A model generated the notes under the pieces. The model was not told the origin of the DNA. It saw nothing but the letters and a program-made list of their open reading frames with translations, and did no database searches. A stretch of 56,740 bases of DNA from positions 1 to 56,740 of the forward strand of contig JALTXX010000006.1 in NCBI GenBank assembly GCA_027046625.1, read 5' to 3'. Origin of the DNA: Candidatus Micrarchaeota archaeon (GTDB taxonomy: Archaea > Iainarchaeota > Iainarchaeia > JAADDC01). The translations under genes were made by a program, and so were the position numbers. Shown in pieces: positions 1-20,784 of this stretch; positions within the stretch are counted from its first letter, which is position 1, and each line of letters opens with the position of its first letter.

Positions 1-92
1 ATCACATACCACCCCTTCCTCCACACTCCAATCAAACCCATCGGGGTATATATAACTTTCCTTTGGGTATTTGGTATTTAGGGCTTCGATGA
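1..92. repeat. Copy A of a 92-nt perfect direct repeat (partner 5474..5565); may extend beyond the window edge
   Basis: Base-by-base comparison: atcacatacc...gggcttcgatga is identical in both places. The copies diverge at position 93 (a) versus 5566 (g). Confidence 0.95.
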
Positions 93-102
93 ATAAACCA
101 AA
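1..102 (-). pseudogene. Orphan cassette 3 (partial): start-less copy of the junction region of the giant protein. The frame opens after TAG at 103-105 and runs out of the window.
   Basis: The minus-strand frame reads FGLFIEALNTKYPKESYIYPDGFDWSVEEGVVCD..., matching giant-protein residues just upstream of CDNRLNV. There is no ATG/GTG/TTG between the upstream stop and the homology. Nt 1-92 are identical to 5474-5565. Confidence 0.6.
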
Positions 103-234
103 CTAGGTTTAGAAGAATACAAGAAAGAAAGTGTCAATAGGGAGCCACGCCTTCATATGTGTAGGAATCGTCCGGGTTTATGTCTGGCATATTAAAATAT
201 TACCTTTTCATCTATTTAAACCTTGTCTATGTAA

Positions 235-1518
235 CTAGCCTTTTACTGTCCTCACTCTCGCCTCTCCAAGCTTTTTTAGTACATGCCAGTGTCTTTCATA
301 TGATATCTTCCCCTCTTTAGCATGTTGTAAGGTTTCTTTCAATAGGTTAGTAACCTCATCATGGTCTTTTAGATATTCTCTAACTCTTGGAGGACGTAAG
401 TAAAATGTATAGGGTAAGCTATGTGGTAAATACGCATGTTCAAACCTAAGCTCTTCCCCATCTTTTGTCTTAAAGTGGAAGTACCTCTTCTTCACAGCCT
501 CGTACAATGACTTTGCCCCTTTATGAATCTGATCCTTCAACTCAGGCCTTCTCTTCTCCAACATCTTCAGATACAGCGGATAAATCATTTCATTTATTAT
601 ATCATAGTGTGCACCAAGTTCCTCATCCAAATGTAGCATCCTCTCCTCTAGCTCTTTATGTCCCTTAGCATATGAAGCCCTACGAGGAAGAATTCTCGAC
701 GTTTCTGACAACATATCAGGGAAGAACACATCATCCTTAGCTTCTCCCTTCTCATGCTTCTCAATCCTCTCTAGAATTTTATCCACTAACTCTCCTAGCC
801 TATCCCCTACATACCAATGACTTTTTGCCATCTCACTAAGAATCTTCTTATACCTACTCTCCTCTACAGCCTTGAACACTTTATCCTCAAAAGGTTCAAT
901 GAACCTTATGAACTCATGATGTGAGTATACGTTGAGTTCTGGGTTTCTAATAATGTTCTCCAGGTCCTTCCACAACCCTATAACCAACGCCTTCTTTTGC
1001 TTTGTATCCATGTTCTCCAACACAGAAACATCAAAGATATCTGGCAACGCAGCCCTGTACTTCTCCCAATGCTTTTCCACGTGCTCAGCCACCTTCTTAG
1101 CAGCCTCTGCAATTTCCTCGCTAGTAAACTCTTCTTTCTTCAACGTCCTATAAGCATCCTCTGGCAACGGATACACCTTATGATAAATATCAGCCAACTC
1201 CTCCCATATCATTTTGTTAGCACCCCTCTCTCTATACTCCAAAAACCTATCAATTAACGGCTTAGCAGCCCTGCTGTGCATGGGGGATTTGTATATCTTT
1301 AGCACATGCTCATATACTTCCTTCGGAATGTTACCCTCCTTATCCTTTGTTAACTCCCCCAACAGATAGAGAATATAATAGGCCTTCAGTTTAGGAAACG
1401 GATAGTAAGTTTCATAGTATCTCCTTGGCTCTTTTTCCTCCTCCCTCTCCTTCCTTTCCTTCCTACCAAATAACCTCTTCAACAACTTCCACGTATCCTC
1501 AGGTGTGAAGATAACCAC
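235..1518 (-). CDS. Uncharacterised 427-aa soluble, highly charged protein; paralog of 2885..4252; cassette partner gene
   Basis: Full ORF with a GTG start 2 nt after the stop of the upstream ORF (1521). It shares blocks with the 455-aa protein: YY..YP.PK.KAYY, HVEK.W, IEPFEDKV.EAV..SRY. No TM segment and no motif I recognise. Confidence 0.8.
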   Translation of the reverse strand: MVIFTPEDTWKLLKRLFGRKERKEREEEKEPRRYYETYYPFPKLKAYYILYLLGELTKDKEGNIPKEVYEHVLKIYKSPMHSRAAKPLIDRFLEYRERGANKMIWEELADIYHKVYPLPEDAYRTLKKEEFTSEEIAEAAKKVAEHVEKHWEKYRAALPDIFDVSVLENMDTKQKKALVIGLWKDLENIIRNPELNVYSHHEFIRFIEPFEDKVFKAVEESRYKKILSEMAKSHWYVGDRLGELVDKILERIEKHEKGEAKDDVFFPDMLSETSRILPRRASYAKGHKELEERMLHLDEELGAHYDIINEMIYPLYLKMLEKRRPELKDQIHKGAKSLYEAVKKRYFHFKTKDGEELRFEHAYLPHSLPYTFYLRPPRVREYLKDHDEVTNLLKETLQHAKEGKISYERHWHVLKKLGEARVRTVKG

Positions 1519-1520
1519 CT

Positions 1521-1922
1521 TTAACCACCTCCACCTATGTTACCACTACTAACTACTCCCAACTCATATTTAACATTACCCTCCCCATCCTTCACCTTCA
1601 CAATATCTCCGATTCGCACCAACTCAATAACTTTACTTTTCTTTAGTTTTGAAACATCAGATTCACTTACTCCATAGGCAGCAGCAGCCCCAGCACCATA
1701 GGCAGCTGTTGTACATAGAAACTCCTTGAGTAAATTCTGTTTAGATGGCTTGGTAGCCTTAAACTTAGGAAGCCTTCTCTTAATATTCTTTATTTTGTTT
1801 AGTTTTTGTCTGTATTTGTATATAATTGGATCTATGTTTATTTTAGCTTGTTTGAACAAGCCTGATTGATTATTTCTAAATAAATTTTTTATGCTATCAA
1901 GAGACAAACCCGACATACTCAA
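1521..1922 (-). CDS. Orphan cassette 2, downstream part (133-aa ORF; track start is TTG, first ATG at 1916)
   Basis: Same frame as 2031-2714, with 35 sense codons between TAG and the TTG. Its C-terminal half aligns with the extreme C-terminus of the giant protein. Its stop lies 2 nt before the 427-aa gene start. Confidence 0.5.
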   Translation of the reverse strand: MSMSGLSLDSIKNLFRNNQSGLFKQAKINIDPIIYKYRQKLNKIKNIKRRLPKFKATKPSKQNLLKEFLCTTAAYGAGAAAAYGVSESDVSKLKKSKVIELVRIGDIVKVKDGEGNVKYELGVVSSGNIGGGG

Positions 1923-2027
1923 TTCAGCAGTGTCAACCTGTGACTTACCATCCTTTATAATCTCGCTAAGTATTTTTGCCAGCTTCTTCTTATTATTATT
2001 ATTTCCACCGATTAAAACATTCCCGTA

Positions 2028-2714
2028 CTACTTCACAATCTCTCCCATAGCTTCCAGCACTACCACACCTTCCTCGCCCTCGGGTACCTTCTTAACCAAA
2101 CTTATGGCCAACTTTTCCCAATCATCTCCAGCCACTTCCTTCAACTCATCCCACCCTCCGCCCATCACACCTCTCAAAAACTTACTCGCCTCATCCGCTA
2201 TCGCTTTTTTCTTCTTACCTATAAACAACACCCGATCTAACCCACCTATTTTATTTTTGTTAATAACATTCTTCAGTGTATTTAACCTACTTACCGCATC
2301 GCCCACCAAAAAGATCCTGGCAGATATTGATACCGCCATTGGTACCACCCCAAACGCTATAATCAGCTTCTTTTCTCCGATCTCTCCAACCCCGGCCATC
2401 TCCTTAAACTTATTCAGTATTCCTTCTCTGTCAGCAGCTATCAAAGCAGTAGGAGCAGCACACTGAACCGCTCCAGATATTGCCCCCATAATGCCTCCCA
2501 CACCTAGTGTGGTAATTGTTTTACATAACATATATGCACCCCAGCAGGCACCAGTAAATGCCCCAAGAGACTTGTTGCTCAACCTCTTCTCTAGCACACC
2601 AATCTCAGCCTTACCATAAGATTCCCCATCGAACTTCACTGTAATAAACTCGCTCTCCCCAACCTTCTCCTTCAACAACTTCTTCAGCCTAACATTGTCA
2701 ATGTTAATCCACAC
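2028..2714 (-). CDS. Orphan cassette 2, upstream part (228-aa ORF if translated from GTG 2714); Gly/Ala/Cys-rich hydrophobic helices
   Basis: ORF track. The GTG start lies inside the CDNRLNV junction codons. Contains the glycine-zipper-like segment GGIMGAISG. Ends at TAG 2028-2030, in frame with the next ORF. Confidence 0.55.
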   Translation of the reverse strand: MWINIDNVRLKKLLKEKVGESEFITVKFDGESYGKAEIGVLEKRLSNKSLGAFTGACWGAYMLCKTITTLGVGGIMGAISGAVQCAAPTALIAADREGILNKFKEMAGVGEIGEKKLIIAFGVVPMAVSISARIFLVGDAVSRLNTLKNVINKNKIGGLDRVLFIGKKKKAIADEASKFLRGVMGGGWDELKEVAGDDWEKLAISLVKKVPEGEEGVVVLEAMGEIVK

Positions 2715-2884
2715 ATTTAACCTATTATCACAAATAGCTTCATCCCACTCGATGAAGTTTTAAGAAAAAGGAACAACAAGAAATTAACCACCAGAGTAGG
2801 ATACCTCCCCATCGTCAAATACCTCTGGCATATTAATATAGGGTCATTCCTTGTATTTATACCTTATTATAGTTTTCTGTGTAT

Positions 2885-4252
2885 CTATGGTTTGAATTTA
2901 TACCTTACCTTCCTGTGTTCAGCAGATGCCAGCTCATCCATGAACATCTCATGGTGCATCTTCAATATCCTCCCTCCCTTGGCCTTGTTTATCATCCCCT
3001 CAAGCTTTCCAAGTGTCTCCTCAAAGTCCTTCAAATACTCCCTATACATAGCCTTGTACTTTTCTCTGTTTAGATACCCCTCAGACAATTGTTGCAACAG
3101 AGCCCCATGCTCATACCTTTCCAGCTTTCCATCCGTTGTTTTATAGTGCAACAGCTCCCTCTTTGCAATGTTCCACAGATGCTCCCTCTCCACCTCCTCT
3201 CCAAATTCCTCCACGAGCTTCTGTCTCACCTCAGGATACTTATGCTTCGCCTCTTCAAGCTTCTGAATATAGTAGGGATAGAACATCATGGAGAGTACAG
3301 AGTCCTTCCTCCTATAGTCTGCCCACTCCTTTTCATCCCCTGCAAGGTGCTCAATCTGTTCAGGCGGTACTATACCACGCGGATCCGGAGTGAGTATATT
3401 ACCATACGTATCCTCAAAAATCCTGAGTATTTCATCCTTATCCTCAAGGTTCCGCTTGGCTCTTCGCACCCACTCCTTTAGCCTTTCACTCCTCTCCCTG
3501 CTAACGGTATCCTCCAATGCCTTCATATACCTACTATCCTTCACCGCTTCCAACACCTTATCCTCAAAGGGTTCAATGAGCCTCATAAGTTCCTGGTACG
3601 TCTTACCATATTGGGAAAAGTAGTACCGTCTCCTGTGAAGGTATATATCATGCACCAAGCCTACCACAGCCCTCCTCTTCTGATCCTCACTCATCCTGTT
3701 AACATGCTCTTCATCGTAAATGAGATGCAAAATCTGCTCATAGTCCTTCCAGTTCTTCTCCACATGCTCTATAATCTTCTTAAGAGTCTCTTCCGCCTTT
3801 GGGTCCTCCTCGAAAAATACAGAGCTTCCTACTTGATACTTCTTCATCAACCAATAAAGCCTGTCCTTATTCTCTATGGGCAGCTCAGACAGCCTGTCCA
3901 TAAACTTGAGAATTACATAGTCCGGAGGAACTCCTCCCTCCCTGTCCCACGTCCTGAACAGTACCTCATGGAAGTTCTTGTTTGCATAGAGATACCTGTG
4001 GCTCTTCAGATTCTCAAGGTACTTTTTATACAAATCCACGTTCACCCCTTCCTTATCAGAGAATAAATGCCCCAATGTGTTAAGGAAGTAATAAGCTTTC
4101 ACCTTGGGATAGGGTGTGTAGTAGACAGTAGTATAATGCCTTTCCTCCTCATCCTCCCTCTTCTTCTCCTCCCTCTTTACCTTCTTTACCTCCTTCTTCT
4201 CCCCCTTCTTTCTCAATAGCCACGCAATTAGATCACCCAAGAGCTCGGCCAT
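2885..4252 (-). CDS. Uncharacterised 455-aa soluble, highly charged protein; paralog of 235..1518; partner gene of the giant protein
   Basis: The ATG lies 6 nt after the giant gene's TGA (4259-4261). K/E-rich N-terminus followed by the conserved blocks shared with the 427-aa protein. Confidence 0.85.
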   Translation of the reverse strand: MAELLGDLIAWLLRKKGEKKEVKKVKREEKKREDEEERHYTTVYYTPYPKVKAYYFLNTLGHLFSDKEGVNVDLYKKYLENLKSHRYLYANKNFHEVLFRTWDREGGVPPDYVILKFMDRLSELPIENKDRLYWLMKKYQVGSSVFFEEDPKAEETLKKIIEHVEKNWKDYEQILHLIYDEEHVNRMSEDQKRRAVVGLVHDIYLHRRRYYFSQYGKTYQELMRLIEPFEDKVLEAVKDSRYMKALEDTVSRERSERLKEWVRRAKRNLEDKDEILRIFEDTYGNILTPDPRGIVPPEQIEHLAGDEKEWADYRRKDSVLSMMFYPYYIQKLEEAKHKYPEVRQKLVEEFGEEVEREHLWNIAKRELLHYKTTDGKLERYEHGALLQQLSEGYLNREKYKAMYREYLKDFEETLGKLEGMINKAKGGRILKMHHEMFMDELASAEHRKVRYKFKP

Positions 4253-4258
4253 TCTATA

Positions 4259-7200
4259 TCACCTCCAACTCCAACCCATTCGTCCTTTGATATGCGTATC
4301 CCCCTTATACAGCTCCCTATATTCTATCTTTATTTTCTCCTCATCCGGCTCAACACCCACGTAAACCTCCCTCAATCCTAACACCTTCTCTATCTTCCAC
4401 ATACCATCGGATACCTTATCTATCTTTATGACTGTAAGAGAGGCCCCCTTCGTTGTTTTGGCAGCTGCATACGCAGAGGTGACACCTGCAAGGTAAGCAG
4501 CAGCCAAGCACCCAGCATCCTTTATTACGTTTTTAAGCTTACCGGTCAACCCTTCTGCAACCGTAGAAACCCTGGAAGCCTCCCTTTCCGGATTAGAAAT
4601 CTTTAGATCTCCGGTTATCAAATCACTAACGGTTCTTTGGGCGTTTTTACTAGAAATACTGCCTAATTGAATTCTGGGAATTCCTTCTAAAGCACTTCTG
4701 AGATTATCTCCACTATTATTACCTTTCAGTCCCCTAAGCAGTCCATCCAATTCATAGCTTTCATTTCCTACCCTAACAACATACGTTCCATTTTTTCCCT
4801 TCTCAGCCCTACTCAGCAGCAGCTTCAAATATGCCAGCGGCTCAAATCCATTATCTATATCTTTTGCAGCCTTCACAATATCAACAGGGTTAATCCCGTT
4901 CTCCAAGAGGATTTCATACCCCTTCTTACCGAAGAATCCTCTAGCAAACCTGTCATACACACTATCCATGTCCCTGTAGAATATCTTTGCAAACCTGCCA
5001 TCTTCGTTGAAGTTCTTCAACCCTTCAAAGGCCCTCTTATAATCCACTACCCACCTATGTATCGCAGCATCCGCCGCCACAATGCTGCCCCCTACAAGCA
5101 CCGCAGGCAACCACCCCTCCTTCACCGCTTCTGTAACCTCACCCCTCTCCACAGATATAATGGCATTCTTTAACTGATCTTTGTAATTATAGACCGCTGC
5201 TCCACTAGGTGCACACATAAATACTCCCTGAGCGACAGAGCTCAGGAAACCACCCTTCCACACCTTCCAAGCACCACATGCAGCATAGACAGCCGTACAT
5301 GTAGCTACAAAGGTAGCAACGGTGGTTTTGTTCACCAAAGCCTCTGCAAACTTCACATCTGCCGTTCCGTAGGAACTTCCATCATAGAGAATGACAATGT
5401 TCTGAGGATCGATCTTACTTAGCTCACCTCTCAGTCCAGCATCACCAATATCAGCACTAACGTTTAACCTATTATCACATACCACCCCTTCCTCCACACT
5501 CCAATCAAACCCATCGGGGTATATATAACTTTCCTTTGGGTATTTGGTATTTAGGGCTTCGATGAGTTTTGGAATGAGCTCGTTGATGGATTTGATCTCT
5601 CCCAGTGCAGTGGCAAGGTCTGTCTCATTGATGTTGGCCTCCATAAACTTTAGTTTCACCTCAGAGTACACTAATCTCCCGCCGATGATGTAGTACACAA
5701 GCAGAGGTAACTCCCATTTCTTATCAAACGTCAAGCTCTTATCTCCAGCCGAAATCTCCACTTGTGTACCATTCTTCCAAACAATGGTTAGGGTGGTACC
5801 GTTACCAATGGTAATACCATCGGTGGCTTTTGTCCCCTCTTTTGCAAGGATGCACATACCAGAGGAGCAGATAGAGGAACCTTCAATGCTCCAGCTCCAC
5901 TGCTTCAGGTTGCCGTTGCAGCTTTTCATGTAGGGGATGAGCAGCACAAACTCTTTCTTCTTTATTTCTCCAGTCGGTGGATAAACGTAGTAGGTAATAC
6001 CACCGTTGCTATTCTCTTTCTCGTAAACTACTTGGGTTGGATCCGCTATGAAGGTTTTGAAGGTTTCCTCTAGCTTGGAAGGTTCCACACCTTCGTTGAA
6101 GGTTACCGTGAAGGAGTTAGATGTCTCTTCTACCTTGAAGTGGGCCTGGTTGTTAAGGGAGCCTAACTTGAAGGTGATGGAGCTTTCGCTGGAGATGGTG
6201 GCGCCGGAGTTGTTTATTATGTTACTGAGGATATCGGGGACGGCGCCGCTTGACTCTACTTTTACCTCTACCTTATCGGGTAGATTGCCGGGATTCTTGG
6301 GGTTTATGAACCAGTAGAGGGGGAGCTTTACGTCGGGGAGCGAAGCGTTGGGGATAGTTTTGGCACATAGATAGGTTAGGCCTCCCTCCTTTTTGAGGGT
6401 GAAGGTGACAGAACCAGGTCCTATATCCATGGCAGCGACAGGGTTGGATTCACACTTGAGGAGGATGGGGGGATCTATGAAGTGATTGGCTGTGAGGGTC
6501 ATTTTTCTTGTGTAGAGAGTGAAGCTTACCTCCTTTTCTTTCATTGTTTCTGCAGTCTCTGTAATTCTTTGAACAACGTCAGAGAGGAAGAGGTATCTGC
6601 TGGATGGTACAGTTAATTGTTCCCCATCGATGGTGGTTACCTCTGTGTTGGGTTTTTCTTCAATGGTGATGGACAGATAACCCTCTGCGTTAGAGAGGTA
6701 AAGGATACCATCTTCTACCGTTTTAGGTATGGTTATGGATAGGAAGATTTTGTTATCTGAACCTGAAGAGGGTGGTAGTCTGATCGTTTTTGCTTCATTT
6801 GGTCTGAAAGTTACGCTGTTGACGGTAATGGGATAGTTGCAGCTGTTTGTGATAAATATTTGTGTGGTTCCGGGAGGAACAGATGATTGATAAATTATAC
6901 AATCTGTGGAGAAGGGTATAAGATGAATGGGTAGCTCCACTCTTCCCCTGTCGGTACCTATCACAATACGATACTCAGAGGAGGAAGCGGGAACCTCCTT
7001 TACCTCTATTGAAAGGGTTGCCGAGGTGGAACTTTTCTTGTTTATGGTGATGGGGAGAGCATCAAAGGATAGGGAGGCAGAAATGCGGTCGCTCAATACA
7101 TTTTTTATTCCATTTATAGTAGCACTTACCTCGTTAGAGGCAATGGTAACTTTATTGCTAAACTCTCCCGTGGAAGATGCTATCACATAAACCCTGTTGA

Positions 7201-10200
7201 AGGTCTGCTCATTATACTTGAATGTGAGGAGATATTGGGATGGGATGACGGTAACTTCCTTATCAATATTTACCTTCTTTCTGAGGGAGCCAATGGAGTA
7301 GGAAAGGAGAAGGGTGGCATTCCAGGTTGTAGGTTTGTCAACCTCCTCTCCTTTATAGGAGAGGGAGATGGAAATGCTTCCATCGGAGGGATCATCGTCT
7401 GAAAGACTTGCGGTGAAGAGGGAGGAGGGAGAGATGGAAACTCCCCCTATATCAAGGAAGGAAAGAACAGATCCGTCGTTTATGGTAATTGGTATCTCTG
7501 TCTCCCTATCTTCCACAAGGATGATAGGCTCCTCAACATCGAAGGACAGTCCTATACTCCCTTTCACTACGGTGAATGTTGTGGTAAAGTATCTCATCTC
7601 TCCTCCAAACTCATAACCCCATACTAGTGTTGCCTCACAGGAAGCTTCCCTACTTTCTGAAGTAAGGGTTACATCCATTTCCTCCTCTGAGGAAGAAGGT
7701 ATGGAGGTTGGAATGGATAGGGTTAGCTCCCCATTTTCACACACCTTCTCCATGCTTCCGTTCTCTGGATAGGCTAAGAATATGGTGTAGGGTGAGGTAT
7801 TCCTTATGGGAATGGATACCGAGTTAAATCTGCTTCCTTCGGGGAAGGGAATGGTAATAGTTTCTGGGATGTCAAGGAGAGGTTGCCCTGGAGGAATGTA
7901 GACAGTAACTACCTCAGGAACAACACTGCATACATAATCCAAACCTTCTTTGCAGATTACCTGCAGATCTCCTTTCATACCTGGAAGGGTTAGGATGCAC
8001 CTTCCGTTCTCAAAGGTGGCTGTTATACCTCCTCCGGCAGAACAGCTATCCCTCCCTACAATGACGTCAAAGGGCTGCATATCTCCAAGGGCAGGCCCGC
8101 TCAATGTGAGAGCTATGCTATCTATGCCCTTTGGAAGTGATACCTCAATGGGAAGTTCTTCTTTAAAAAGGAAGGAGAACCCCTCATTTACACGGACAAA
8201 TACCGTTCTATCACCAAGAACGGTAATATTTCTCGTGTTGGTGTAAAGTACTGCTCCATCCTTAGAAAATATTTGTAGTTTAGCCGCGTAAGAACCCTCC
8301 TTAACATTTTTTACCCTTAGCGTTACCTCCTTTACATCAAAGGGTTTTAGCGTGATACTTATGTCCTTCTTCTTGTCTCCGAAGCTGAGGGTAAGCTTTG
8401 CAGAGGAAGATTCTAGAGAGCATCTTATTACATAGGCTCTAACCTCTAGATTATCCCCCTCCAGTGCGGAGGCAACGTCTGTATACGTCTTTCCATCCCT
8501 TTCTACGTCAAAGGATAGGAGGCTGCCATACCCGTTGGTACATCTTGCCTCTCCTAGAGCTGGAATGACGGCAGTATCCGTATAGGAGGCGCCCTTATCT
8601 GTTTCAAGGGTGTAGCTTATTCTTGCATATCCATCCACATCGTACAGAGGTACAACAACCTCTACCTCTCCTGACAGATCATTCACCTTAACAGTTTTTA
8701 CCTCTGAGGAGCCATCGGGCTTGAATGCTTCTACTATGAGGGTGGCGCCGGTACTGTCAGGAGTGAGAGCATAGTCAAAGAGTAGGGTATACTGCTTTCC
8801 ACTCTCTATGGATGCATATAGCTCCCCCTTCTTTTTTACTCCCTTCAGGATGGCCTTCGGCGCCTCGTTTATGGGAGTAAGGTAAATATCTACCCGGGAG
8901 TATGTTGGTACTGCTACATCCTTCTTGGATGGCACATATCCTTCTGCGGACACATTTATGGTGTATTCACCCTTTGGAAGCATTACAATACCACAGCCAT
9001 TAATGTTTGTCCTCTTTGTAAGTTCTTTTCCTCCTGCTGTAACCCCTTCAATGGAAAGAGAGACATTATTTACATTTTCTACAGTATCCTCCCTTCTCCA
9101 AAGGATGCACACCTCAAGGGAGTACTCTCTCTCAGTTGCCCTTAGGGATCTTTCCATGATGGTTGTTTCGAAGGTGTCTGTTTTCCATACAAGGGTTGCC
9201 TTTACCTCTCCGTGAAGTTCTACCTTCTTTTCCTTTACCTGGGGTTCATTCTTCAACGAGAGGGAAATTGTTTCGTTGTTCAGGGTTAGCTCAAGAGAGC
9301 CGTGGCCAAACCCTCCCAGGGAAACCACACTCTCTGATGAGATGGTATCCTCCTCACCTTCCCACTTTACATAGTACCACAACTCCGTTCCATCGTAGTT
9401 CTGGAAGGGAATAGAGGTTGCGTAGAAGGTACCCTCCCCTGTAAACTCCTCTCTGGTATTATCCTTGTAGTGTAGGGTTGCAACGATCTTTATATCTACA
9501 TCTTTTATATCCCCTGTGAAGCTGAATCCCCTAAATGTAAAGTCTACATATTCCTTATCTGCGGCGTCCTTTGAAATTTCTTGGGAGAATGTCTTGAAGA
9601 GAGGGGATGATACACCAGCCTGTACCCTAACCTCTACGCTCTTTGCTTCGTTGTTTGTATAAACTCTTACATGTAGTTTACCTCCATTTATTAGTACCCT
9701 TCCGCTGGGCACCCCATTCTTGGTGAAATACCATTCTATGGTGCCGGTGGGCTTTTTCTCCCTGTACACAAGGGTTATGGCCTCGGTAGCAACAATCCTT
9801 TCATCTTTTAGAACCTCTACTCTGAGGGGTTGGGTTCTGTCCACCGTAAAATCGATACTTCCATAGGCAAATCCTTCCACAGGTATTTCCTTTTTATCCT
9901 TTATGATAAATCTGAGGGTGGCATTCCCCACTACTATGTATGTTATCGTAGCCTTTCCGTTTATGGCATCCACCTCTTCTGTGGGAGTTATAAGGTATAG
10001 GATACCTTCTGCTTCCTTTAGAGGGGCAGATATAAGCGTTACTTCCTGTTCAAAGCTCCCCTCTTCCTCACCGTTCTTCAATACCTTTACACGAAGTGTA
10101 TATTTTCCATCCTCTAAGGAGGGGGTTGGTATCTTAAGGGAGAGGGACGGAGGAGAGGGAGAGACCCTCTTGTTAAGAAGGGTTTTGCCGCCCATCTCTA

Positions 10201-11929
10201 CCAGAATGGTTCTCCCCTCATCGGAGGGGAAGTTTATAAGAATGGAGAGGTAGCCTCCTTTTAGAAGAACGGGCACCTCTTTTCCTTTGAAGAGTATTCC
10301 TATAGAGGCTGACAATTTATCTGGATAGGAATCTCTCATCACATCCTTAGGTATGACAATATCGCTTCCTGGCTCGATGCTTCCCGTGGAAAGCACCTTG
10401 TTGCCTACCTTGTATTCGTAGGTGTATTCATCGCCCAGTTCAAGTTTAAAGGTACATGTTTCTTTGCACTCCTTCCTATCGTAAAGCTCTCCATTCTTCT
10501 TTACCTCTACTATTCCGGGCAGAGGAACGCTAACCTTTGTATTTACAACAAGAGTGCCAAAATCCATGGTAACCTCCATGTCATCTGTTAGTTCTACTTT
10601 CCTCTCAACAGATCTGCCATATGCATACGCTGTAAGGGTATAGTTACCCTTTGGAAGGTAGGTTACCACTTTTCCGTTGTTCGTGGATAGTTTCCTATCC
10701 ACCTCTTTTATATGGACGGAAAATACCTTGACGGGTCCCTTTCTATGTTTTGCCTGTATGGTTAGCTTGTAAAGAGGTATAGAAGAGCTATTGGTCAGAG
10801 GAATGAGAGCGTAACCCTCCTCATCGGTGGTAACCTCAAGGTTTCCAACCTTCACAGTTTTGTTCTTTACGGGCTTTCCGTTATCTACAATTTGTTTTTT
10901 AAGATAAAACTGGCCTGTTCCAATATCTGCAACAATAATACTATCCTCGTTTGCAAAGAAAAAGTCAGAGACCCTATCTTTTACCTTTATCTGGTAATCT
11001 CCGGCACACACCTTAAAACTTACAGATCCATCTTTCCCTGTAACCTTTCGGTATGTTCCTCCCTGGGGGGAGAAGAGCTCAACTTGAACATCCTCTTGAG
11101 GCACCCCATCCTTTGCTACAAACACCACCACATTAACCCTTCTGCACTCTTCGTTACCTGCGAGGAACTTTAGATCCTCAAGGGGTTCTAGCTTTACCAT
11201 TCGTGTGTCGGAATTGGTGGTTAGGGTGACATTGAACTTCTTCTCCTTATAACCGACAGCTTTTACCGTAATAGTGTAGAGAACATTTTGCTTCAACTTC
11301 AGGGAGAGCTTGCCATCGTTTGCTTCATATGTAGAAACGGTATCTCCTTCCACTAGCACAAATGCGTGTAGAGCCTTCCCATCTGTATCCGTGATAAACA
11401 GCTCAAGGGTACCCCACCCTTCCTCTGGGGCGGAAGATTGTTTTAGAGTAATGGAAATACTTTCATCGCCTCCCACAAAGAAGGTTCTGCCAGTTCTTTC
11501 AAAGGCCGGATGATCCACTTCAATCCTTATCTCCCCTTCAGGAATGGGTTTAAGCTCTGCATATCCGAAATCATCCGTGTATGCTTCTGCTACAACTTCT
11601 CCGTTGAGAAACGCCTTTACAGTGGCACCTTTTACAGGATTCCCCTCCTCATCCTCCACATAGATAGATAGTATGTACTGGTTTTGAGGGATGGTAAGGA
11701 ATATGAACCCTCCTATTAGAAGTAGAACCACCCCAAGGAATAGAGGGAAGGGAGGGATACCCCTCTCATCTAAAAAATCATGCAATCTGTATACTGGCAA
11801 CCCCCTCTCATCTAAAAAGTCCAGCATTCTGTAGAAGGCATCTTCTAGAGAGGTGTAGAGGTTTCTCAGGATGGTGGCTACCATGTTGTAGTATAAGAGG
11901 CTTGGGAAGGTTTTAAACGTTGGGGTCAT
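4259..11929 (-). CDS. Giant (2556 aa) membrane-anchored cell-surface protein: N-terminal TM anchor, many Ig-like / CarboxypepD_reg-like beta-sandwich repeats, and a roughly 406-aa variable CT domain after CDNRLNV (Cys2151)
   Basis: Uninterrupted 7.67-kb ORF. TM segment FPLFLGVVLLLIGGFIFLTI near residue 60-80. Repeated segments such as VEDEEGNPVKGATVKAFLNGEVVAEAYTDDFGYAEL and TNINGCGIVMLPKGEYTINVSAEGY. The CT domain has 4 small-residue-rich hydrophobic helices. An alternative start at M16 (11884) is possible. Confidence 0.9.
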   Translation of the reverse strand: MTPTFKTFPSLLYYNMVATILRNLYTSLEDAFYRMLDFLDERGLPVYRLHDFLDERGIPPFPLFLGVVLLLIGGFIFLTIPQNQYILSIYVEDEEGNPVKGATVKAFLNGEVVAEAYTDDFGYAELKPIPEGEIRIEVDHPAFERTGRTFFVGGDESISITLKQSSAPEEGWGTLELFITDTDGKALHAFVLVEGDTVSTYEANDGKLSLKLKQNVLYTITVKAVGYKEKKFNVTLTTNSDTRMVKLEPLEDLKFLAGNEECRRVNVVVFVAKDGVPQEDVQVELFSPQGGTYRKVTGKDGSVSFKVCAGDYQIKVKDRVSDFFFANEDSIIVADIGTGQFYLKKQIVDNGKPVKNKTVKVGNLEVTTDEEGYALIPLTNSSSIPLYKLTIQAKHRKGPVKVFSVHIKEVDRKLSTNNGKVVTYLPKGNYTLTAYAYGRSVERKVELTDDMEVTMDFGTLVVNTKVSVPLPGIVEVKKNGELYDRKECKETCTFKLELGDEYTYEYKVGNKVLSTGSIEPGSDIVIPKDVMRDSYPDKLSASIGILFKGKEVPVLLKGGYLSILINFPSDEGRTILVEMGGKTLLNKRVSPSPPSLSLKIPTPSLEDGKYTLRVKVLKNGEEEGSFEQEVTLISAPLKEAEGILYLITPTEEVDAINGKATITYIVVGNATLRFIIKDKKEIPVEGFAYGSIDFTVDRTQPLRVEVLKDERIVATEAITLVYREKKPTGTIEWYFTKNGVPSGRVLINGGKLHVRVYTNNEAKSVEVRVQAGVSSPLFKTFSQEISKDAADKEYVDFTFRGFSFTGDIKDVDIKIVATLHYKDNTREEFTGEGTFYATSIPFQNYDGTELWYYVKWEGEEDTISSESVVSLGGFGHGSLELTLNNETISLSLKNEPQVKEKKVELHGEVKATLVWKTDTFETTIMERSLRATEREYSLEVCILWRREDTVENVNNVSLSIEGVTAGGKELTKRTNINGCGIVMLPKGEYTINVSAEGYVPSKKDVAVPTYSRVDIYLTPINEAPKAILKGVKKKGELYASIESGKQYTLLFDYALTPDSTGATLIVEAFKPDGSSEVKTVKVNDLSGEVEVVVPLYDVDGYARISYTLETDKGASYTDTAVIPALGEARCTNGYGSLLSFDVERDGKTYTDVASALEGDNLEVRAYVIRCSLESSSAKLTLSFGDKKKDISITLKPFDVKEVTLRVKNVKEGSYAAKLQIFSKDGAVLYTNTRNITVLGDRTVFVRVNEGFSFLFKEELPIEVSLPKGIDSIALTLSGPALGDMQPFDVIVGRDSCSAGGGITATFENGRCILTLPGMKGDLQVICKEGLDYVCSVVPEVVTVYIPPGQPLLDIPETITIPFPEGSRFNSVSIPIRNTSPYTIFLAYPENGSMEKVCENGELTLSIPTSIPSSSEEEMDVTLTSESREASCEATLVWGYEFGGEMRYFTTTFTVVKGSIGLSFDVEEPIILVEDRETEIPITINDGSVLSFLDIGGVSISPSSLFTASLSDDDPSDGSISISLSYKGEEVDKPTTWNATLLLSYSIGSLRKKVNIDKEVTVIPSQYLLTFKYNEQTFNRVYVIASSTGEFSNKVTIASNEVSATINGIKNVLSDRISASLSFDALPITINKKSSTSATLSIEVKEVPASSSEYRIVIGTDRGRVELPIHLIPFSTDCIIYQSSVPPGTTQIFITNSCNYPITVNSVTFRPNEAKTIRLPPSSGSDNKIFLSITIPKTVEDGILYLSNAEGYLSITIEEKPNTEVTTIDGEQLTVPSSRYLFLSDVVQRITETAETMKEKEVSFTLYTRKMTLTANHFIDPPILLKCESNPVAAMDIGPGSVTFTLKKEGGLTYLCAKTIPNASLPDVKLPLYWFINPKNPGNLPDKVEVKVESSGAVPDILSNIINNSGATISSESSITFKLGSLNNQAHFKVEETSNSFTVTFNEGVEPSKLEETFKTFIADPTQVVYEKENSNGGITYYVYPPTGEIKKKEFVLLIPYMKSCNGNLKQWSWSIEGSSICSSGMCILAKEGTKATDGITIGNGTTLTIVWKNGTQVEISAGDKSLTFDKKWELPLLVYYIIGGRLVYSEVKLKFMEANINETDLATALGEIKSINELIPKLIEALNTKYPKESYIYPDGFDWSVEEGVVCDNRLNVSADIGDAGLRGELSKIDPQNIVILYDGSSYGTADVKFAEALVNKTTVATFVATCTAVYAACGAWKVWKGGFLSSVAQGVFMCAPSGAAVYNYKDQLKNAIISVERGEVTEAVKEGWLPAVLVGGSIVAADAAIHRWVVDYKRAFEGLKNFNEDGRFAKIFYRDMDSVYDRFARGFFGKKGYEILLENGINPVDIVKAAKDIDNGFEPLAYLKLLLSRAEKGKNGTYVVRVGNESYELDGLLRGLKGNNSGDNLRSALEGIPRIQLGSISSKNAQRTVSDLITGDLKISNPEREASRVSTVAEGLTGKLKNVIKDAGCLAAAYLAGVTSAYAAAKTTKGASLTVIKIDKVSDGMWKIEKVLGLREVYVGVEPDEEKIKIEYRELYKGDTHIKGRMGWSWR
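5474..5565. repeat. Copy B of the 92-nt perfect direct repeat, inside the giant gene just upstream of its CT domain
   Basis: Identical to window positions 1-92. Encodes IEALNTKYPKESYIYPDGFDWSVEEGVVCD. Confidence 0.95.
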
Positions 11930-11941
11930 AAAAATATTTCC
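11930..11941. promoter_or_regulatory. AT-rich TATA-like element in the 28-nt divergent spacer between the giant gene and gatD
   Basis: ataaaaatattt sits about 24 nt upstream of the gatD ATG (11958), which is compatible with a leaderless gatD mRNA. On the other strand it would favour the M16 start of the giant gene. Confidence 0.4.
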
Positions 11942-11957
11942 CCCTCATCTCATTAGG

Positions 11958-13229
11958 ATGGAACCGGGGGATGAGGTAGAATTCTACTGGAGAGGAGCAC
12001 GGAAGAAAGGGGTTTTCATAAAGGAAGAAGGGAAATACCTTATCTTTAAGCTTGAAAATGGTTACAATGTAGGTTTTCCTAAGGACGAGATAGAGAACAT
12101 AAAAATTATCTCTAAAAGGCATGTAGGAAAGCCAAAATTTCATTACAAACCGGAATTTAGGGAGGATCTGCCCCTTGTGGGGCTGGCAGCTACGGGGGGA
12201 ACCATCTCAGCAAGGGTGGACTACATAACAGGAGCGGTCACATCGGAATTTACGGTAGAGGATCTGGTAAACACCTTTCCAGAGATGAGGGAGGTGGCGC
12301 GCCCGAAGCTAAAGCAGATCTCCAATATATTTTCTGAAAACATGGTACCATCGCTGTGGAAAGATATTGCAAGAGAGATTTATGATCTTCTAAAGGAAAC
12401 AGAGGGAGTAGTGGTCACACACGGAACGGATACCATGCACTACACATCTTCATACCTTTCTTTTGCTATAGAAACGGGCAAACCAGTTGTACTAACCGGA
12501 GCCCAGCGCTCCTCAGACAGACCCTCCTCAGATGCAGCTTACAACCTCATCTCCTCCCTTTATGTGGCAGGACACTCCCCTCTAGGAGGAGTATTCGTCT
12601 GTATGCATGCATCTTCCTCAGATGGGAGGAATGCGGTCCATCTTGGGACAAGGGTGAGGAAGATGCATACCAGCAGAAGGGATACCTTCCAGAGCATAGG
12701 AAGGGATCCTGTCGCCTTTGTGGATCTGGAGATGAGGAAAGGAAAGATAGATCGTATCGATCTCGAGGTGCTGGACCCCTCCTTTAGTAGGGGAGATAAA
12801 CTTAACTTGAGAAATTACGTGAATGAAAATGTGGGACTCGTAAAATATTATCCTGGCATGAAAAGGGAGATATTCGAACGCTTCCTCTTCTCCCACGAGG
12901 GAGTTATCATAGAAGGAACAGGATTTGGACACATAAGGGAGGAGCTCATACCCATAATAGAGCAGGCAACACACTCCAACGTATTTGTTGGTATTACGTC
13001 CCAAACCATATGGGGCAGAACACATCCCCATGTATACTCAACAGCTGTAAGGATGGCAGAGGCAGGCGCTGTGTTCCTTGAGGATATGTTGCCCGAAACA
13101 GCCTTTGCAAAGCTTGTTTGGGTGATGGGGTTTGAAAAGGACCTAGAAAAGATAAAGGAGCATATGCTAACAAACTATGCGGGAGAGATTACAGAGAGGA
13201 GTGGGATAACATGGATCTCATCCTTATAA
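11958..13229 (+). CDS. gatD: Glutamyl-tRNA(Gln) amidotransferase subunit D (GatD)
   Basis: Asparaginase-like motifs ATGGTISARVDY and HGTDTM, with a typical GatD N-terminal domain. Overlaps gatE by 19 nt. Confidence 0.9.
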   Translation: MEPGDEVEFYWRGARKKGVFIKEEGKYLIFKLENGYNVGFPKDEIENIKIISKRHVGKPKFHYKPEFREDLPLVGLAATGGTISARVDYITGAVTSEFTVEDLVNTFPEMREVARPKLKQISNIFSENMVPSLWKDIAREIYDLLKETEGVVVTHGTDTMHYTSSYLSFAIETGKPVVLTGAQRSSDRPSSDAAYNLISSLYVAGHSPLGGVFVCMHASSSDGRNAVHLGTRVRKMHTSRRDTFQSIGRDPVAFVDLEMRKGKIDRIDLEVLDPSFSRGDKLNLRNYVNENVGLVKYYPGMKREIFERFLFSHEGVIIEGTGFGHIREELIPIIEQATHSNVFVGITSQTIWGRTHPHVYSTAVRMAEAGAVFLEDMLPETAFAKLVWVMGFEKDLEKIKEHMLTNYAGEITERSGITWISSL

Positions 13230-15505: not shown

Positions 15506-16176
15506 TTGTTGCCCTCTCTTCCTTTGTACACGGTAGTGGGAGGAGTACCATAGCAAAAGAGATTGCAAGAAGGTTAGATGCGATTCATATATCTTCAGGA
15601 GATATATTTAGAGAGATTGCGAGGGAGTATGGGTTTGATGATGTAAAGATGTTTGGGGAATATCTAATGAATAACAAGAGGCTAATGATACAAGTGGAAA
15701 CAGCCATAGATGTGGAGATGCAGGAACGTATCAGAACGCTCTACAGAAGTGGTAAAACAATAGTATTGGATTCAAACCTACATTCCCACCCTGCTCTTCT
15801 TCAAGGGATGGAACATGTAAGTTTCTATGTGTATGCATCACCCTCCATTATAAGAGAGCGGCTTTTGAGGTTTCCTAGAAGGGATGAAAAGTACGGGGAA
15901 GATCCTCTCAGATATGAGCTGGAGAGAACAAGAAAGGATATAAACAGGTATAGACTGTTATCACTTCTTACTCCAAACCCTCTGAGCTATCTGTACAGCT
16001 ACGGCTCTCAGGTATTATCCAAGCTTTACCATCTTTATAAACTTCACATGAGAGGTGCTCCCCTTCTCTGGCTAAGACAGGCCGCCACTTCCGAGGGGGC
16101 ACACTTTCTGGACAACTCTGGACCGTTAGAGAGGAGTGTCAACACTGCTATGGAGCTCATTCTTCAAGGAAGGTGA
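15502..16176 (+). CDS. Cytidylate-kinase-like P-loop protein with a degenerate Walker A motif
   Basis: HGSGRSTIAKEIARRLDAIHISSGDIFREIA resembles archaeal Cmk (GSGK[ST]T...SAG.iFRe.A), but Lys is replaced by Arg. ATGA overlap with the gatE stop. Confidence 0.55.
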   Translation: MIVALSSFVHGSGRSTIAKEIARRLDAIHISSGDIFREIAREYGFDDVKMFGEYLMNNKRLMIQVETAIDVEMQERIRTLYRSGKTIVLDSNLHSHPALLQGMEHVSFYVYASPSIIRERLLRFPRRDEKYGEDPLRYELERTRKDINRYRLLSLLTPNPLSYLYSYGSQVLSKLYHLYKLHMRGAPLLWLRQAATSEGAHFLDNSGPLERSVNTAMELILQGR

Positions 16177-17371
16177 TGGGCCTGGTAAAGTGGAAATTTT
16201 CGTATTTGCTGTACTTATTTAAATGATCCTTTATAAGGTACCCCAGAATGTCTCTGATTCTGAGTTTGGTGGTAACTAACTTTTTCTGCATCTTTGAGTG
16301 CCTCTTGCGCAGTATATTATCCTCTGCATATTTTCTTATGGCTTCTGCTACATCCCTTACAAGCTGCTCATAGAGAGGTCTGGTGGTACGTATCTTCATC
16401 GGACCTTTATACTCTTTTCTAACCTTTGCATGGGAGAAGAGTTCCTTCTTAAACTCTTTCAACACCTCCGGATCGGAAAGGATATCTCTGGCATGCATTA
16501 GGGCTTCTAGGTAGAACCCCATACCCTTTATTCCAGTATCTTTCGAAGCTTCCACTATTCTGTCAAGTTCTGCTGCCACGTCAGAGAAGAAGGCATCTAT
16601 ATGGTAATCTTCCTTTTTGTGGCTGGGATCCGCCTCCTTTATCTGTTCCAGGGATGCTCTAAACCCTTGGGCAACTGCAGACTCTTCGCGTGTGGTTAGC
16701 ATATTGTTCTTCTTTAGCATCTTGTAAAGTGTGGCCAGCTCCTTTCCGTAGAGGTGCTCCTTCCCCTCCTTCACAGCAAGGTATATTTCATCGATAGGGA
16801 CGTTCTTTCCATTTACATTCACACTATCTATTTTCAACCTTCTTGCAGCGGTAATCATTTCAAGAAGTTTATCTCTGGGAGCCAATACTATTTTTGGTAT
16901 CTTCTTGGGCTTTTCAGCTGATCTTAATAACTCTGGATGCCTCTTATCTATTTCTTTATAAACTTTCTCTGCGGCTTCGTTGACAAGTTTCTGTTTGAGC
17001 TCCTTTAGCTTTTCCTTCTTCTGCTCTTTCTTCTTTATGTAGTTCTCCACCCTATCAAGCAGCTCGAATATCTTCTTCTGTTGTATTCTATTCAAAATCA
17101 GCTGTTGTATGCCCTCTTCTGTAGAATACGGACTCATAGGAGATTTGTTAACCTCTTTTAAAACATCTACCAGGTTTATACCTCTCCTTTTTAATGATCT
17201 AAGCCTGCTATAAAGTTTTGAAAGCTCTTCTTCAGAATACTTTGTCAATCCCCATGGACGAGATGTTATGCCATGCTCCCTCAAAGCAGATCTAACGTTG
17301 TTTCTAAGCAGCTCATGGTTGTGGGTAAGCTGTCTCCTCACCCTTCTAAAACCTTCTATTACCCTCTTCAT
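16157..17371 (-). CDS. Hypothetical K/E-rich 404-aa protein
   Basis: Long ORF with no motif I recognise. Confidence 0.6.
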   Translation of the reverse strand: MKRVIEGFRRVRRQLTHNHELLRNNVRSALREHGITSRPWGLTKYSEEELSKLYSRLRSLKRRGINLVDVLKEVNKSPMSPYSTEEGIQQLILNRIQQKKIFELLDRVENYIKKKEQKKEKLKELKQKLVNEAAEKVYKEIDKRHPELLRSAEKPKKIPKIVLAPRDKLLEMITAARRLKIDSVNVNGKNVPIDEIYLAVKEGKEHLYGKELATLYKMLKKNNMLTTREESAVAQGFRASLEQIKEADPSHKKEDYHIDAFFSDVAAELDRIVEASKDTGIKGMGFYLEALMHARDILSDPEVLKEFKKELFSHAKVRKEYKGPMKIRTTRPLYEQLVRDVAEAIRKYAEDNILRKRHSKMQKKLVTTKLRIRDILGYLIKDHLNKYSKYENFHFTRPITFLEE

Positions 17372-17413
17372 GTAAGGGTAATACCAACCCTATATTTAAA
17401 GGTTGGTGATAGG

Positions 17414-18025
17414 ATGATACTCGTTCTTGCGGAAGCCCCCCTTATGTTGGTGCCGAAAAGGTTTAGGAAAAGAAGGAGCGTGAAAGCGTTTAGGGAGCGT
17501 TTTAGAGTGAAGTATCCGGTGCTTGATATTAACTACATGCCCGATGTCTGTAGAGAGTTGGGAGTTAGCGGAAGACCAGACATTCTTCACTTATCTCTCC
17601 TCCTAGCACTGGAAAGTCCGTTGGCCAGAAAAGGGTTGTTGGATGTCTACTTTACTACAATAGAAGGGAAGATTTTTCACATAAAGAGGGGCACTCGCCT
17701 CCCAAGGGGGTATAGCAGATTCCTTGGCCTTATAGGGCAAACACTAGCTGAGGGATCTCCCTTTATAGAGGAGGTCACGGAGTTGCCCTTGAAAAAACCG
17801 ATAATATTGATGGATGAGAGAGGTGAAAGCAAACAGGTTTCATACTCCGATGCAACTGTTATAGTAGGTGCGTTTTCCCGAGGAACCTTCAGGAAAAATT
17901 ATAACGAAGATTTTAGGATATCTATCTATGAAGAACCCTTAAACACATGGGATGTGGTAGGAAGGGTGATAGCGTTTGCAGAGTTGGAGAAAAATATACT
18001 GGAGAGCGCCCCGGCCGGGATTTGA
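17414..18025 (+). CDS. nep1: Ribosomal RNA small subunit methyltransferase Nep1 (Emg1)
   Basis: MILVLAEAPLMLVPK..., then HLSLLLALESPLARKGLLDVYFTT and RLPRGYSRFLGLIGQ, are typical of Nep1. Start moved from 17273 to the ATG at 17414. Confidence 0.8.
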   Translation: MILVLAEAPLMLVPKRFRKRRSVKAFRERFRVKYPVLDINYMPDVCRELGVSGRPDILHLSLLLALESPLARKGLLDVYFTTIEGKIFHIKRGTRLPRGYSRFLGLIGQTLAEGSPFIEEVTELPLKKPIILMDERGESKQVSYSDATVIVGAFSRGTFRKNYNEDFRISIYEEPLNTWDVVGRVIAFAELEKNILESAPAGI

Positions 18026-18080
18026 ACCCGGGTCACGGGCTCGACAGGCCCGCATGCTAGCCGGACTACACCACCGGGGC
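18007..18080 (-). tRNA. tRNA-Asp (GUC)
   Basis: Manual cloverleaf. Acceptor GCCCCGG/CCGGGGC, anticodon stem CGGGC/GCCCG, loop CUGUCGA, T-loop UUCAAAU, discriminator G. No encoded CCA. Confidence 0.9.
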
Positions 18081-18115
18081 TCTAAGGAAGATGGGAAAAG
18101 GAAAGTTTAAAAAAT

Positions 18116-18937: not shown

Positions 18938-18973
18938 GAATTGATATGGTTGCTCTAAGATTTTTAAAGGGTA

Positions 18974-19783: not shown

Positions 19784-19819
19784 TCTTTTAGATGTTTCAA
19801 CATCACAAACATATGGGGA

Positions 19820-19892: not shown

Positions 19893-19894
19893 CT

Positions 19895-20634: not shown

Positions 20635-20639
20635 ATTTA

Positions 20640-20713: not shown

Positions 20714-20784
20714 AATTCCTCATTTCTCATAGGACATGGCAACATTTAAATAGGGGGAGCGTGATTATACCATGGGTGGTTTAT

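Follow-up and report, generated by a model that had tools for sequence, protein, structure and literature searches.

Introduction

Polymorphic surface effectors that are switched by exchange of cassettes are well established in bacteria. In contact-dependent growth inhibition (CDI), the giant CdiA protein is constant up to a VENN junction and variable in the C-terminal (CT) part beyond it, with the cognate gene lying downstream and, in loci of the Escherichia coli EC93 and EC869 type, with start-less orphan cdiA-CT/cdiI modules. Rhs loci have orphan modules too, and in evolved Salmonella the orphan toxin is reported to become active once its copy recombines with the main one. Here we describe an archaeal locus that can be set beside these systems. 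It consists of a gene for a giant surface protein followed on the same strand by cassettes, in which a copy of the C-terminal module of that protein is paired with a partner gene. The locus fills one end of contig JALTXX010000006.1, and by "the window" we mean the whole stretch of DNA that was analyzed, which is the complete 56,740-bp contig of a metagenome-assembled genome (MAG) held at NCBI.

Archaea have so far yielded in silico predictions of polymorphic toxin systems but no characterized example (PMC8416519, PMC6393860). Such predictions (Makarova et al. 2019, cited in both articles; Zhang 2012) depend on toxin domains of bacterial type that can be recognized as such, for example colicin D or PD-DExK, or on signature genes such as those of DUF4157 proteases (PMC6393860). 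A different kind of variable surface protein, VARTIG, is found in Thermococcales, where a large protein of immunoglobulin-like (Ig) domains has a recombining, variable C-terminal Ig domain and diverse downstream genes in a layout resembling that of polymorphic toxins; the same study found no counterpart outside Thermococcales (PMC8416519).

Results

The giant gene and the cassettes downstream of it are built from the same parts (Table 1). As a preliminary description made without database searches had proposed, the main gene reads as an ORF (open reading frame) of 2,556 codons in which the heptapeptide CDNRLNV is followed by 399 codons, which make up the module CT1. The motif is encoded at only two positions in the whole window, 5459-5479 and 2712-2732, and the second copy, FIEWDEAICDNRLNV, opens an orphan module, CT2, of nearly the same length (396 codons). 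The two tails are homologous over their full length and strongly diverged, with 21% identity and an E value of 9e-7 in BLASTP, 26% identity in a MAFFT alignment, and a Smith-Waterman z score of 18.7 against shuffled sequences. Their partners have diverged in parallel and are paralogs with 29% identity (E 2e-32). Each partner is also tightly coupled to its tail: partner 1 starts 6 nt past the stop of the main gene, with a GGAGGTG Shine-Dalgarno sequence inside the last codons of that gene, and partner 2 starts 2 nt past the stop of CT2, with GGAGGTG again inside the last codons of the tail. Both couplings, the near-equal length and strong divergence of the tails, and the paralogy of the partners had been claimed from the letters alone and hold up here. 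The same is true of the lack of a canonical start in cassette 2, since the stretch that leads from the stop at 2762 to the motif contains no ATG, GTG or TTG.

The junction is conserved at the DNA level as well. Junctions 1 and 2 are identical over 17 nt, and this 17-mer, TGTGATAATAGGTTAAA, occurs in the window only at the two full junctions, against 0.03 occurrences expected by chance. The identity spans all synonymous positions of five codons, including the rare TTA (P ~0.0125 under the codon usage of the genome). A third junction is marked by a longer repeat: positions 1-92 of the window are a 100% DNA copy of 5474-5565, comprising 30 codons before the motif plus its Cys and Asp codons, and the two copies are 5,473 bp apart. 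A perfect direct repeat of 92 nt between junctions 1 and 3 is a ready substrate for fusion by deletion. The contig ends within junction 3, right after TGTGAT, the Cys-Asp codons of the motif. The preliminary description was right about a third junction and wrong in having it cut by the edge of the window; because the window is the whole contig, that edge is an assembly break inside the repeat. Its proposal to extend the contig leftwards and count further cassettes yielded nothing new, as look-ups of the exact proteins returned only pieces that end at the same repeats. The 24-nt junction DNA was absent from JGI metagenome contigs and from the GTDB species-representative genomes.

Table 1. Coordinates of the parts of the locus in the window
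Feature	Position	Strand	Remarks
Main gene, giant surface protein	4259..11929	-	2,556 aa as the ORF reads; from ORF call, Pfam and prediction of transmembrane helices
N-terminal module of main gene	11681..11929	-	Cytoplasmic motif, then transmembrane anchor; motif common to other archaeal giant proteins of 2.5-2.9 thousand aa
Pre-junction homology block in main gene	5474..5565	-	Codes IEALNTKYPKESYIYPDGFDWSVEEGVVCD; copy 1 of the 92-nt perfect direct repeat (family D1)
Junction 1, CDNRLNV	5459..5479	-	TGTGATAATAGGTTAAACGTT; main-protein residues 2151-2157
CT1, C-terminal module of main protein	4262..5458	-	399 aa; codons after the motif
Partner 1	2885..4252	-	455 aa; translationally coupled to CT1
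Leader of cassette 2	2760..2884	-	GC 34%; TATA-like box, short ORF, T-rich tract, two TAA
Junction 2, CDNRLNV	2712..2732	-	TGTGATAATAGGTTAAATGTG; NFIEWDEAI remnant directly before the motif
CT2, orphan C-terminal module	1521..2711	-	396 codons; start-less; TAG in frame at 2028-2030; ends in TAA at 1521-1523
Partner 2	235..1518	-	427 aa; GTG start; intact paralog of partner 1
Leader of cassette 3	93..234	-	Homologous to leader 2 (repeat family D8)
Junction 3	1..92	-	Second copy of the perfect 92-nt repeat; the Cys and Asp codons of the motif are the last on the contig

Despite its missing start and one in-frame TAG, which is also present in the independent scaffold_40272 of the European Nucleotide Archive (ENA), CT2 is clearly coding sequence. 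That single stop compares with 38 and 45 in the other two frames, and partner 2 has 0 stops in frame compared with 26 and 53. With so few in-frame stops at such divergence, both CT2 and partner 2 must have been under coding selection until recently. Upstream of CT2, two TAA codons in leader 2 (2786 and 2762) part an upstream ATG from junction 2. We considered whether the stops in the orphan cassette are reassigned or read through and rejected this, because the stop types are mixed (TAA, TAA and TAG).

Each of the two leaders follows a partner stop, and the leaders are homologous to one another and promoter-like. In both, a TATA-like box is followed after ~23 nt by ATGCCAGA, which opens an ORF of 15-18 codons, and then by a T-rich tract and a hydrophobic remnant, FLV..F..FIE, that continues into the junction. 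In leader 2, the box TATAAATA lies at 2854-2861 and ATGCCAGA at 2824-2831, opening the short ORF MPEVFDDGEVSYSGG with its stop, and the two TAA codons lie beyond it. In leader 3, the box TTTAAATA lies at 213-220 and ATGCCAGA at 183-190, opening MPDINPDDSYTYEGVAPY with its stop, ahead of the T-rich tract. An Rfam search found no noncoding RNA in the leaders, its matches in the window being four tRNAs elsewhere. The GC content of cassette 2 is 41-42% (41% in CT2) compared with 45-46% in the main gene, while that of the leaders is 34%. At third codon positions, GC reaches 0.60 in partner 1 (2888-4252), lies at 0.47-0.48 in the main gene, in partner 2 and across the remainder of the window, and is 0.42-0.45 in CT1 and CT2.

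Independent assemblies reproduce the array and show that one part of it varies. For comparison we used an ENA assembly of SAMN12239309 made at k=55, a sample with the same population whose record name suggests a hydrothermal deposit (Reysenbach 2020). In it, three contigs cover the locus: L088 (scaffold_472) matches window positions 5511-23229 at 99.97% identity, L086 matches 2653-4531 at 97.9%, and L001 (scaffold_40272) matches 38-2707 at 100%. Both L088 and L001 stop exactly 55 nt into the 92-nt repeat, as would be expected of two paths entering one repeat node at k=55, and L086 and L001 overlap by exactly 55 nt, beginning 5 nt past junction 2. The NCBI contig, for its part, stops 6 nt into the motif. 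These ends and overlaps show that junction 3 is reproducibly reached from partner 2 by way of leader 3 and that the assembly graphs branch at the junctions. In addition, a Logan assembly reproduces the end of CT2 and exactly partner 2, which is likewise found exactly in the ENA assembly, and a second NCBI MAG has the same main gene and gatD.

The haplotype represented by L086 differs from the window at 39 positions in 1,879 nt, against a background of 5 in 17.7 kb (Poisson 5e-58), so that the difference in the stretch of partner 1 and leader 2 is ~70-fold higher than elsewhere. Most of it is concentrated in two places. The partner 1 stop and leader 2, 128 nt in all, hold 28 of the 39 differences together with indels and form the most variable stretch, and another 8 fall in a 43-nt patch of partner 1 (3350-3392) that changes residues 288-301 from TPDPRGIVPPEQIE to APAPGGIVPPRQIK. 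In a strain variant of partner 1 (P0008), 5/7 substitutions lie at these same residues. There are 0 differences in the 3' end of CT1, junction 2, CT2, partner 2 and leader 3. Such localized mosaicism indicates recombination with diverged alleles that are absent from every assembly.

Several smaller observations concern the same comparisons. The 43-nt patch has the look of gene conversion over a short tract, with an unseen allele as donor, or else of local diversifying selection in a loop that aligns poorly between the paralogs. Over the 17.7 kb, the window differs from the two other assemblies only at 9348, 9354, 16916, 16930 and 16946. The first two positions, separated by 6 nt within the giant gene, are T-to-C changes common to the ENA contig and GCA_015521515.1; the other three are clustered in an unannotated 404-aa ORF (16157..17371).

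The two tails share a series of features along their length. Just past the junction both keep a DGxSYGxA stretch, followed ~50-140 residues past the junction by three marginally hydrophobic helices rich in Ala, Gly and Cys. A soluble stretch of ~180 aa comes next, then one more helix, rich in Ala (C..AAY.AG...AY), and finally a small end that is beta-rich; five cysteines are common to both tails. In CT1, the four helices, all marginally hydrophobic, lie at residues 2202-2220, 2228-2246, 2272-2290 and 2472-2490, with the ~180-aa stretch between the third and fourth and a beta-rich C-terminal stretch of ~64 aa. The partners are predicted to be all-helical and are rich in charged residues and Tyr (Glu 13%, Lys 12%, Arg 8%, Tyr 7%). 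An N-terminal amphipathic helix leads into a Lys/Glu linker, and no transmembrane (TM) helix or signal peptide is predicted.

Neither family could be connected to proteins outside the locus. Searches of both tails and both partners against Pfam, NCBIfam, PADLOC, PHROGs and PDB sequence profiles gave nothing above noise, in keeping with the earlier remark that they carry no recognized motif. The protein collections searched for relatives span 1.8-15 billion proteins. In a word-indexed search of 5.8 billion clusters, partner 1 retrieved nothing but itself and residues 1901-2556 of the main protein had no match, and a full HMMER scan of 1.84 billion representatives with a partner profile found the two window proteins only. 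Pattern and tblastn scans of JGI metagenome contigs and IMG/VR for relatives of tails or partners were likewise empty. AlphaFold2, run on alignments of 2-3 rows, gave models that are unusable, with predicted local distance difference test scores (pLDDT) of 39.5 for CT1 and 41.6 for the partner, and a Foldseek comparison of these models with PDB returned no match with E below 0.7 and TM-score above 0.2, that is, noise. Self-cleavage of the HINT or intein type at the junction Cys was unsupported, as no Hint or intein match was obtained and the aligned CTs conserve neither a His nor a Thr-x-x-His.

In its N-terminal part, the main protein is related to other anchored giants. It has a single strong TM helix (residues 56-83), and Pfam detects CarboxypepD_reg in 4 stretches (E 1.6e-24), CarbopepD_reg_2, Y_Y_Y, and weak Ig-like matches; there was no match in NCBIfam. 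Translation probably starts at Met16 (11884), given that a TATA-like TTTAAAAC lies 26 nt before this ATG in the same geometry as in the leaders and that the start matches the N termini of homologues, which begin 8-12 residues before a conserved Tyr. The TM helix is preceded by a cytoplasmic motif, Y..hED.(F/Y)Y..hD.LD..GhPVY...D.hE..GhP.FP. This motif is an internal tandem LD..G.P repeat; it is covered by no Pfam model and occurs in at least seven proteins of 2.5-2.9 thousand aa from uncultured archaea.

Four relatives (P0004-P0007) were found with E values of 1.7e-12 to 1e-7, as well as by BLASTP and in a 7-protein alignment, with the similarity confined to the first ~230-250 residues, that is, to the N-terminal module and the first carboxypeptidase-regulatory-like repeat. 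These giant proteins of DPANN and uncultured archaea resemble the main protein in the N-terminal motif, single TM anchor, carboxypeptidase-regulatory-like repeats and length of more than 2,500 aa (2.5-2.9 thousand). Their loci contain an EpsH-like gene, a pilin-like gene, more giant genes and a T2SSE ATPase, and no partner-like gene or cassettes. In three such loci (L003 1488-20695; L004 182-25074; L005), an EpsH/exosortase-like membrane protein of 185 aa is followed by a first giant, a pilin-like protein and a second giant. The second giant genes of L003 (12785-20695) and L004 (16782-24428) also carry the N-terminal motif; L004 has a third giant gene after the second, and in L004 and L005 the T2SSE ATPase lies upstream. 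The C terminus of P0005 is an SLT lytic-transglycosylase domain, and downstream of the giant P0006 (L087 8370-11991) lie ~10 small unannotated ORFs of 66-235 aa and, farther on, a PolB with an intein. Two possible links between these loci and ours were tried. The genes of 498-591 aa downstream of P0004 and P0005 were rejected as analogs of the partners, as they are pilin-like, have class III signal peptides and show no BLAST similarity to the partners. A conserved C-terminal anchor of the giant family, with CT as its version here, found no statistical support (hhalign E 0.21; Smith-Waterman z <=1.4).

The remainder of the window is archaeal housekeeping sequence, including gatD and gatE, the upstream neighbors of the main gene, several aminoacyl-tRNA synthetases, PolB, XPD, and four tRNAs. 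GatD shares 69-74% identity with that of Candidatus Iainarchaeum MAGs (DPANN, Nanobdellati) and no more than 53% with anything else. On this protein similarity, the host is a DPANN archaeon related to Iainarchaeota, and members of DPANN are mostly ectosymbionts (PMC8407392). No giant gene lies beside gatD in the closest GatD relatives whose neighborhoods were compared, Ca. Iainarchaeum MAGs of 53-74% identity. GatE (13211-15505, plus strand; 764 aa) has an extra N-terminal domain of ~150 residues that resembles AAA_17/AAA_18 nucleotide kinases, and it is followed by a separate AAA_17 kinase-like gene of 224 aa (15502-16176, plus strand), an arrangement that recurs in L088. In PolB (41520-44714, minus strand; 1,064 aa), the DNA_pol_B match falls into three stretches, which suggests an insertion, and no intein domain was found at the threshold used. 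The tRNAs (Asp-GTC, Gly-CCC, Pro-CGG and Lys-TTT) lie within 2.7 kb (18006-20714), among SPFH/Band 7 and hexapeptide transferase genes.

Discussion

Our results point to a locus in which the C-terminal module of a giant surface protein, together with a cognate gene, may be exchanged. An exchangeable C-terminal cassette locus that is genetically like the orphan modules of CDI and Rhs, irrespective of what the modules do, is the reading we favor, and we judge it about equally likely to be right or wrong. The expressed gene would end in CT1, ~400 aa long, with its cognate cytoplasmic partner being co-translated, and silent spare cassettes would lie downstream, each with its leader and junction remnant ahead of a variant CT and a variant partner. 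Homologous recombination between the repeats at the CDNRLNV junctions, over 92 nt for junctions 1 and 3 or 17 nt for junctions 1 and 2, would fuse a new CT to the constant body, and every such exchange would keep a CT adjoining its own partner. Alternatively, incoming cassette arrays may integrate at the junction and displace older tails downstream. A simple route for this would be single-crossover (Campbell-type) integration of a circular cassette array, which would leave a perfect duplication of the junction flanking the insert and push the older tail downstream. The orphan partners would remain intact, and their expression may be driven by the conserved promoter of the leader or rely on a Shine-Dalgarno sequence of their own.

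In the most likely role, the tip would be a contact-dependent effector, directed against competitors or at the host cell of the presumed episymbiont, and the cognate partner would protect or chaperone. What the sequences show is the anatomy, the paired divergence and coupling of tails and partners, the conservation of junction DNA, the recent coding history of the orphan and the local mosaicism between haplotypes; recombinational switching, delivery and any toxicity or protection are inferences. We find it rather doubtful that the tails act as toxins with the partners conferring immunity. It is also doubtful that the giant protein is a membrane-anchored fiber serving as a contact-dependent delivery device, an independent archaeal counterpart of CDI and Rhs whose tip and partner, both of new families, are swapped at CDNRLNV from promoter-bearing silent cassettes. 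The preliminary description had likened the layout to CDI and Rhs loci, and the genetic half of that claim has fared well: there is a junction, the modules are coupled and have diverged together, the orphans are start-less, and the cassette region is a haplotype mosaic. Its toxin, immunity and contact-dependent half found no direct support, and no such domains were detected.

A number of findings weigh against an effector locus of this kind. Domain searches gave no match to toxin, immunity, pre-toxin or delivery families, nor to TPS, FHA, Rhs or YD. The tail and partner families had no further members among the 1.84 billion representatives and 5.8 billion clusters searched, and no related genome was found to carry the locus. 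The two tails represent a single fold in two variants, not unrelated toxins, and no conserved residues of a catalytic type stand out. The partners, at 427-455 aa, soluble and highly charged, are atypical of immunity proteins and would be wrong for protection from a membrane-acting toxin. The helices of the tails, being only marginally hydrophobic, could form a membrane base or a buried hairpin. Furthermore, the N-terminal TM anchor looks uncleaved, so that release of a tip would need processing, of which none is evident. The sequence past junction 3 could be CT1 or CT2 again, as in a tandem duplication or an assembly-graph cycle, and not a third tail. Finally, no recombinant in which the main body is fused to CT2 was observed in the assemblies.

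Some of these points would be expected if the array were a decaying tandem duplication, in which the 3' end of the giant gene and the downstream gene were copied by unequal crossing-over and have since drifted into pseudogenes with no switching. The missing start of CT2, its internal TAG and the two stops in leader 2 fit such a history, as do the low GC of the leaders (34%), the rapid change of leader 2 between haplotypes, with indels, and the lack of observed recombinants or relatives; the 92-nt repeat at the contig end could likewise mark a mere tandem duplication or an assembly-graph cycle. Yet the duplication is ancient (21-29% identity), and with one stop in CT2 and none in frame in partner 2 the copies have been selected for nearly all of their history. 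The Shine-Dalgarno coupling signal is kept in both units, and the junction is conserved at synonymous sites too. Moreover, junction 3 is 100% identical to junction 1 while junction 2 shares only 17 nt with it, which speaks for recent exchange and not for uniform decay. We therefore regard simple decay as unlikely. Much less probable still is an assembly artefact, in which the array or junction 3 would be a chimeric join of strain variants. The contig comes from a MAG, ends inside a repeat, and belongs to a sample in which two haplotypes co-occur, and a chimera might be suspected on these grounds; however, the ENA contigs reproduce the passage from partner 1 through leader 2 to CT2 (L086), from CT2 to junction 3 (L001) and from the main body to junction 1 (L088) with clean 55-nt overlaps, and the Logan assembly and the second MAG agree with them, so that this explanation is largely refuted. 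The target of a diversity-generating retroelement is also an unlikely identity for the repeat, whose copies are 100% identical, and there was no reverse transcriptase among the scanned ORFs, a set that did not include every small ORF.

A structural function for the tails deserves similar attention. CT could be the membrane-embedded anchor of a fiber held at both ends, with ~4 helices and the ~180-aa stretch as a cytoplasmic loop to which the partner binds as an adaptor, and the spare cassettes would then give phase, antigenic or host-range variation to the attachment organelle of an episymbiont. Such a locus would resemble silent cassettes of the pilE/pilS type rather than toxin exchange. In its favor, the two tails have a run of hydrophobic helices in common, and the charges beside them suit the inferred topology of four helices and a cytoplasmic loop; the partners have an N-terminal amphipathic helix and neither signal peptide nor TM helix; and the host belongs to DPANN, most of which are ectosymbionts. 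P0004 and P0005, too, have a similar order of elements about as far from the N terminus, near residue 2130: first a hydrophobic stretch with Cys, then an extended soluble region, a helix rich in Ala and Gly, and a C-terminal domain such as SLT. This resemblance is unsupported by alignment, however (hhalign E 0.21, hmmsearch scores <=0, Smith-Waterman z 0.1-1.4), and the P0004 and P0005 loci, instead of a partner-like gene or cassettes, hold a pilin-like gene, a second giant gene and the T2SSE ATPase. The CT helices also fall below the usual hydrophobicity of TM helices, and no antigenic benefit is obvious from varying a base that lies in the membrane and cytoplasm. With these points on either side, we consider a structural base improbable, to about the same degree as decay.

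The locus is a single one in one population, and its significance depends on which of these readings is correct. If the tips are effectors, they would give an initial view of the ways in which these symbionts combat or manipulate their neighbors, along with a new junction and recombination signal and two new protein families. A delivery device, if that is what the giant protein is, may in an episymbiont target the host cell or rival symbionts. Should the tails turn out to be membrane bases, we would have here a case of an archaeal attachment organelle that is varied from silent cassettes.

Compared with known systems, the exchangeable cassette locus that we favor resembles CDI in its arrangement. 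In both, a constant giant surface protein has a short conserved junction peptide, a variable C-terminal module and a cognate gene immediately downstream, and in both, start-less orphans of CT and partner retain homology from before the junction, which here amounts to 9 residues plus the motif in cassette 2 and 92 nt in cassette 3. The parts are different. Pfam detects no TPS domain, FHA or hemagglutinin repeats, or VENN/PT-VENN in the archaeal protein, whose junction is CDNRLNV and whose body consists of carboxypeptidase-regulatory-like and Ig-like repeats with an N-terminal TM anchor. No CdiB (Omp85/TpsB) adjoins it, the neighbors being gatD/gatE and the cassettes, and the archaeon is without an outer membrane. 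The partners have 427-455 aa compared with ~100 aa in CDI, and the CTs are homologous variants of one fold. The likeness to Rhs lies in the direct repeats shared by the main gene and downstream orphan, which on deletion would fuse an orphan tip to the body, and in the cognate gene directly downstream; unlike Rhs proteins, the main protein has no RHS/YD repeats in Pfam and no DPxGL aspartyl-protease autoproteolytic junction.

Among archaea, the predicted polymorphic toxin systems also combine a large secreted or surface protein with a variable C terminus and downstream cassettes, and they too have been assigned a function from layout only. Here, however, no toxin domain, signature gene or immunity family is detectable in CT1, CT2 or the partners, and the families are singletons. 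The nearest archaeal analog in spirit is VARTIG, which likewise has a large protein of Ig-like domains, a recombining C terminus and a layout like that of polymorphic toxins. The present locus differs from VARTIG modules, whose protein is of the arCOG07710 type, in belonging to a DPANN archaeon and in having as its variable part a non-Ig, helical module of 400 aa with one paralogous partner family. Across all of these systems, what the archaeal locus has in common with its bacterial counterparts is the same genetic logic, put together from parts without detectable relatives in a DPANN lineage, whose members are mostly ectosymbionts and as such live in contact with other cells.

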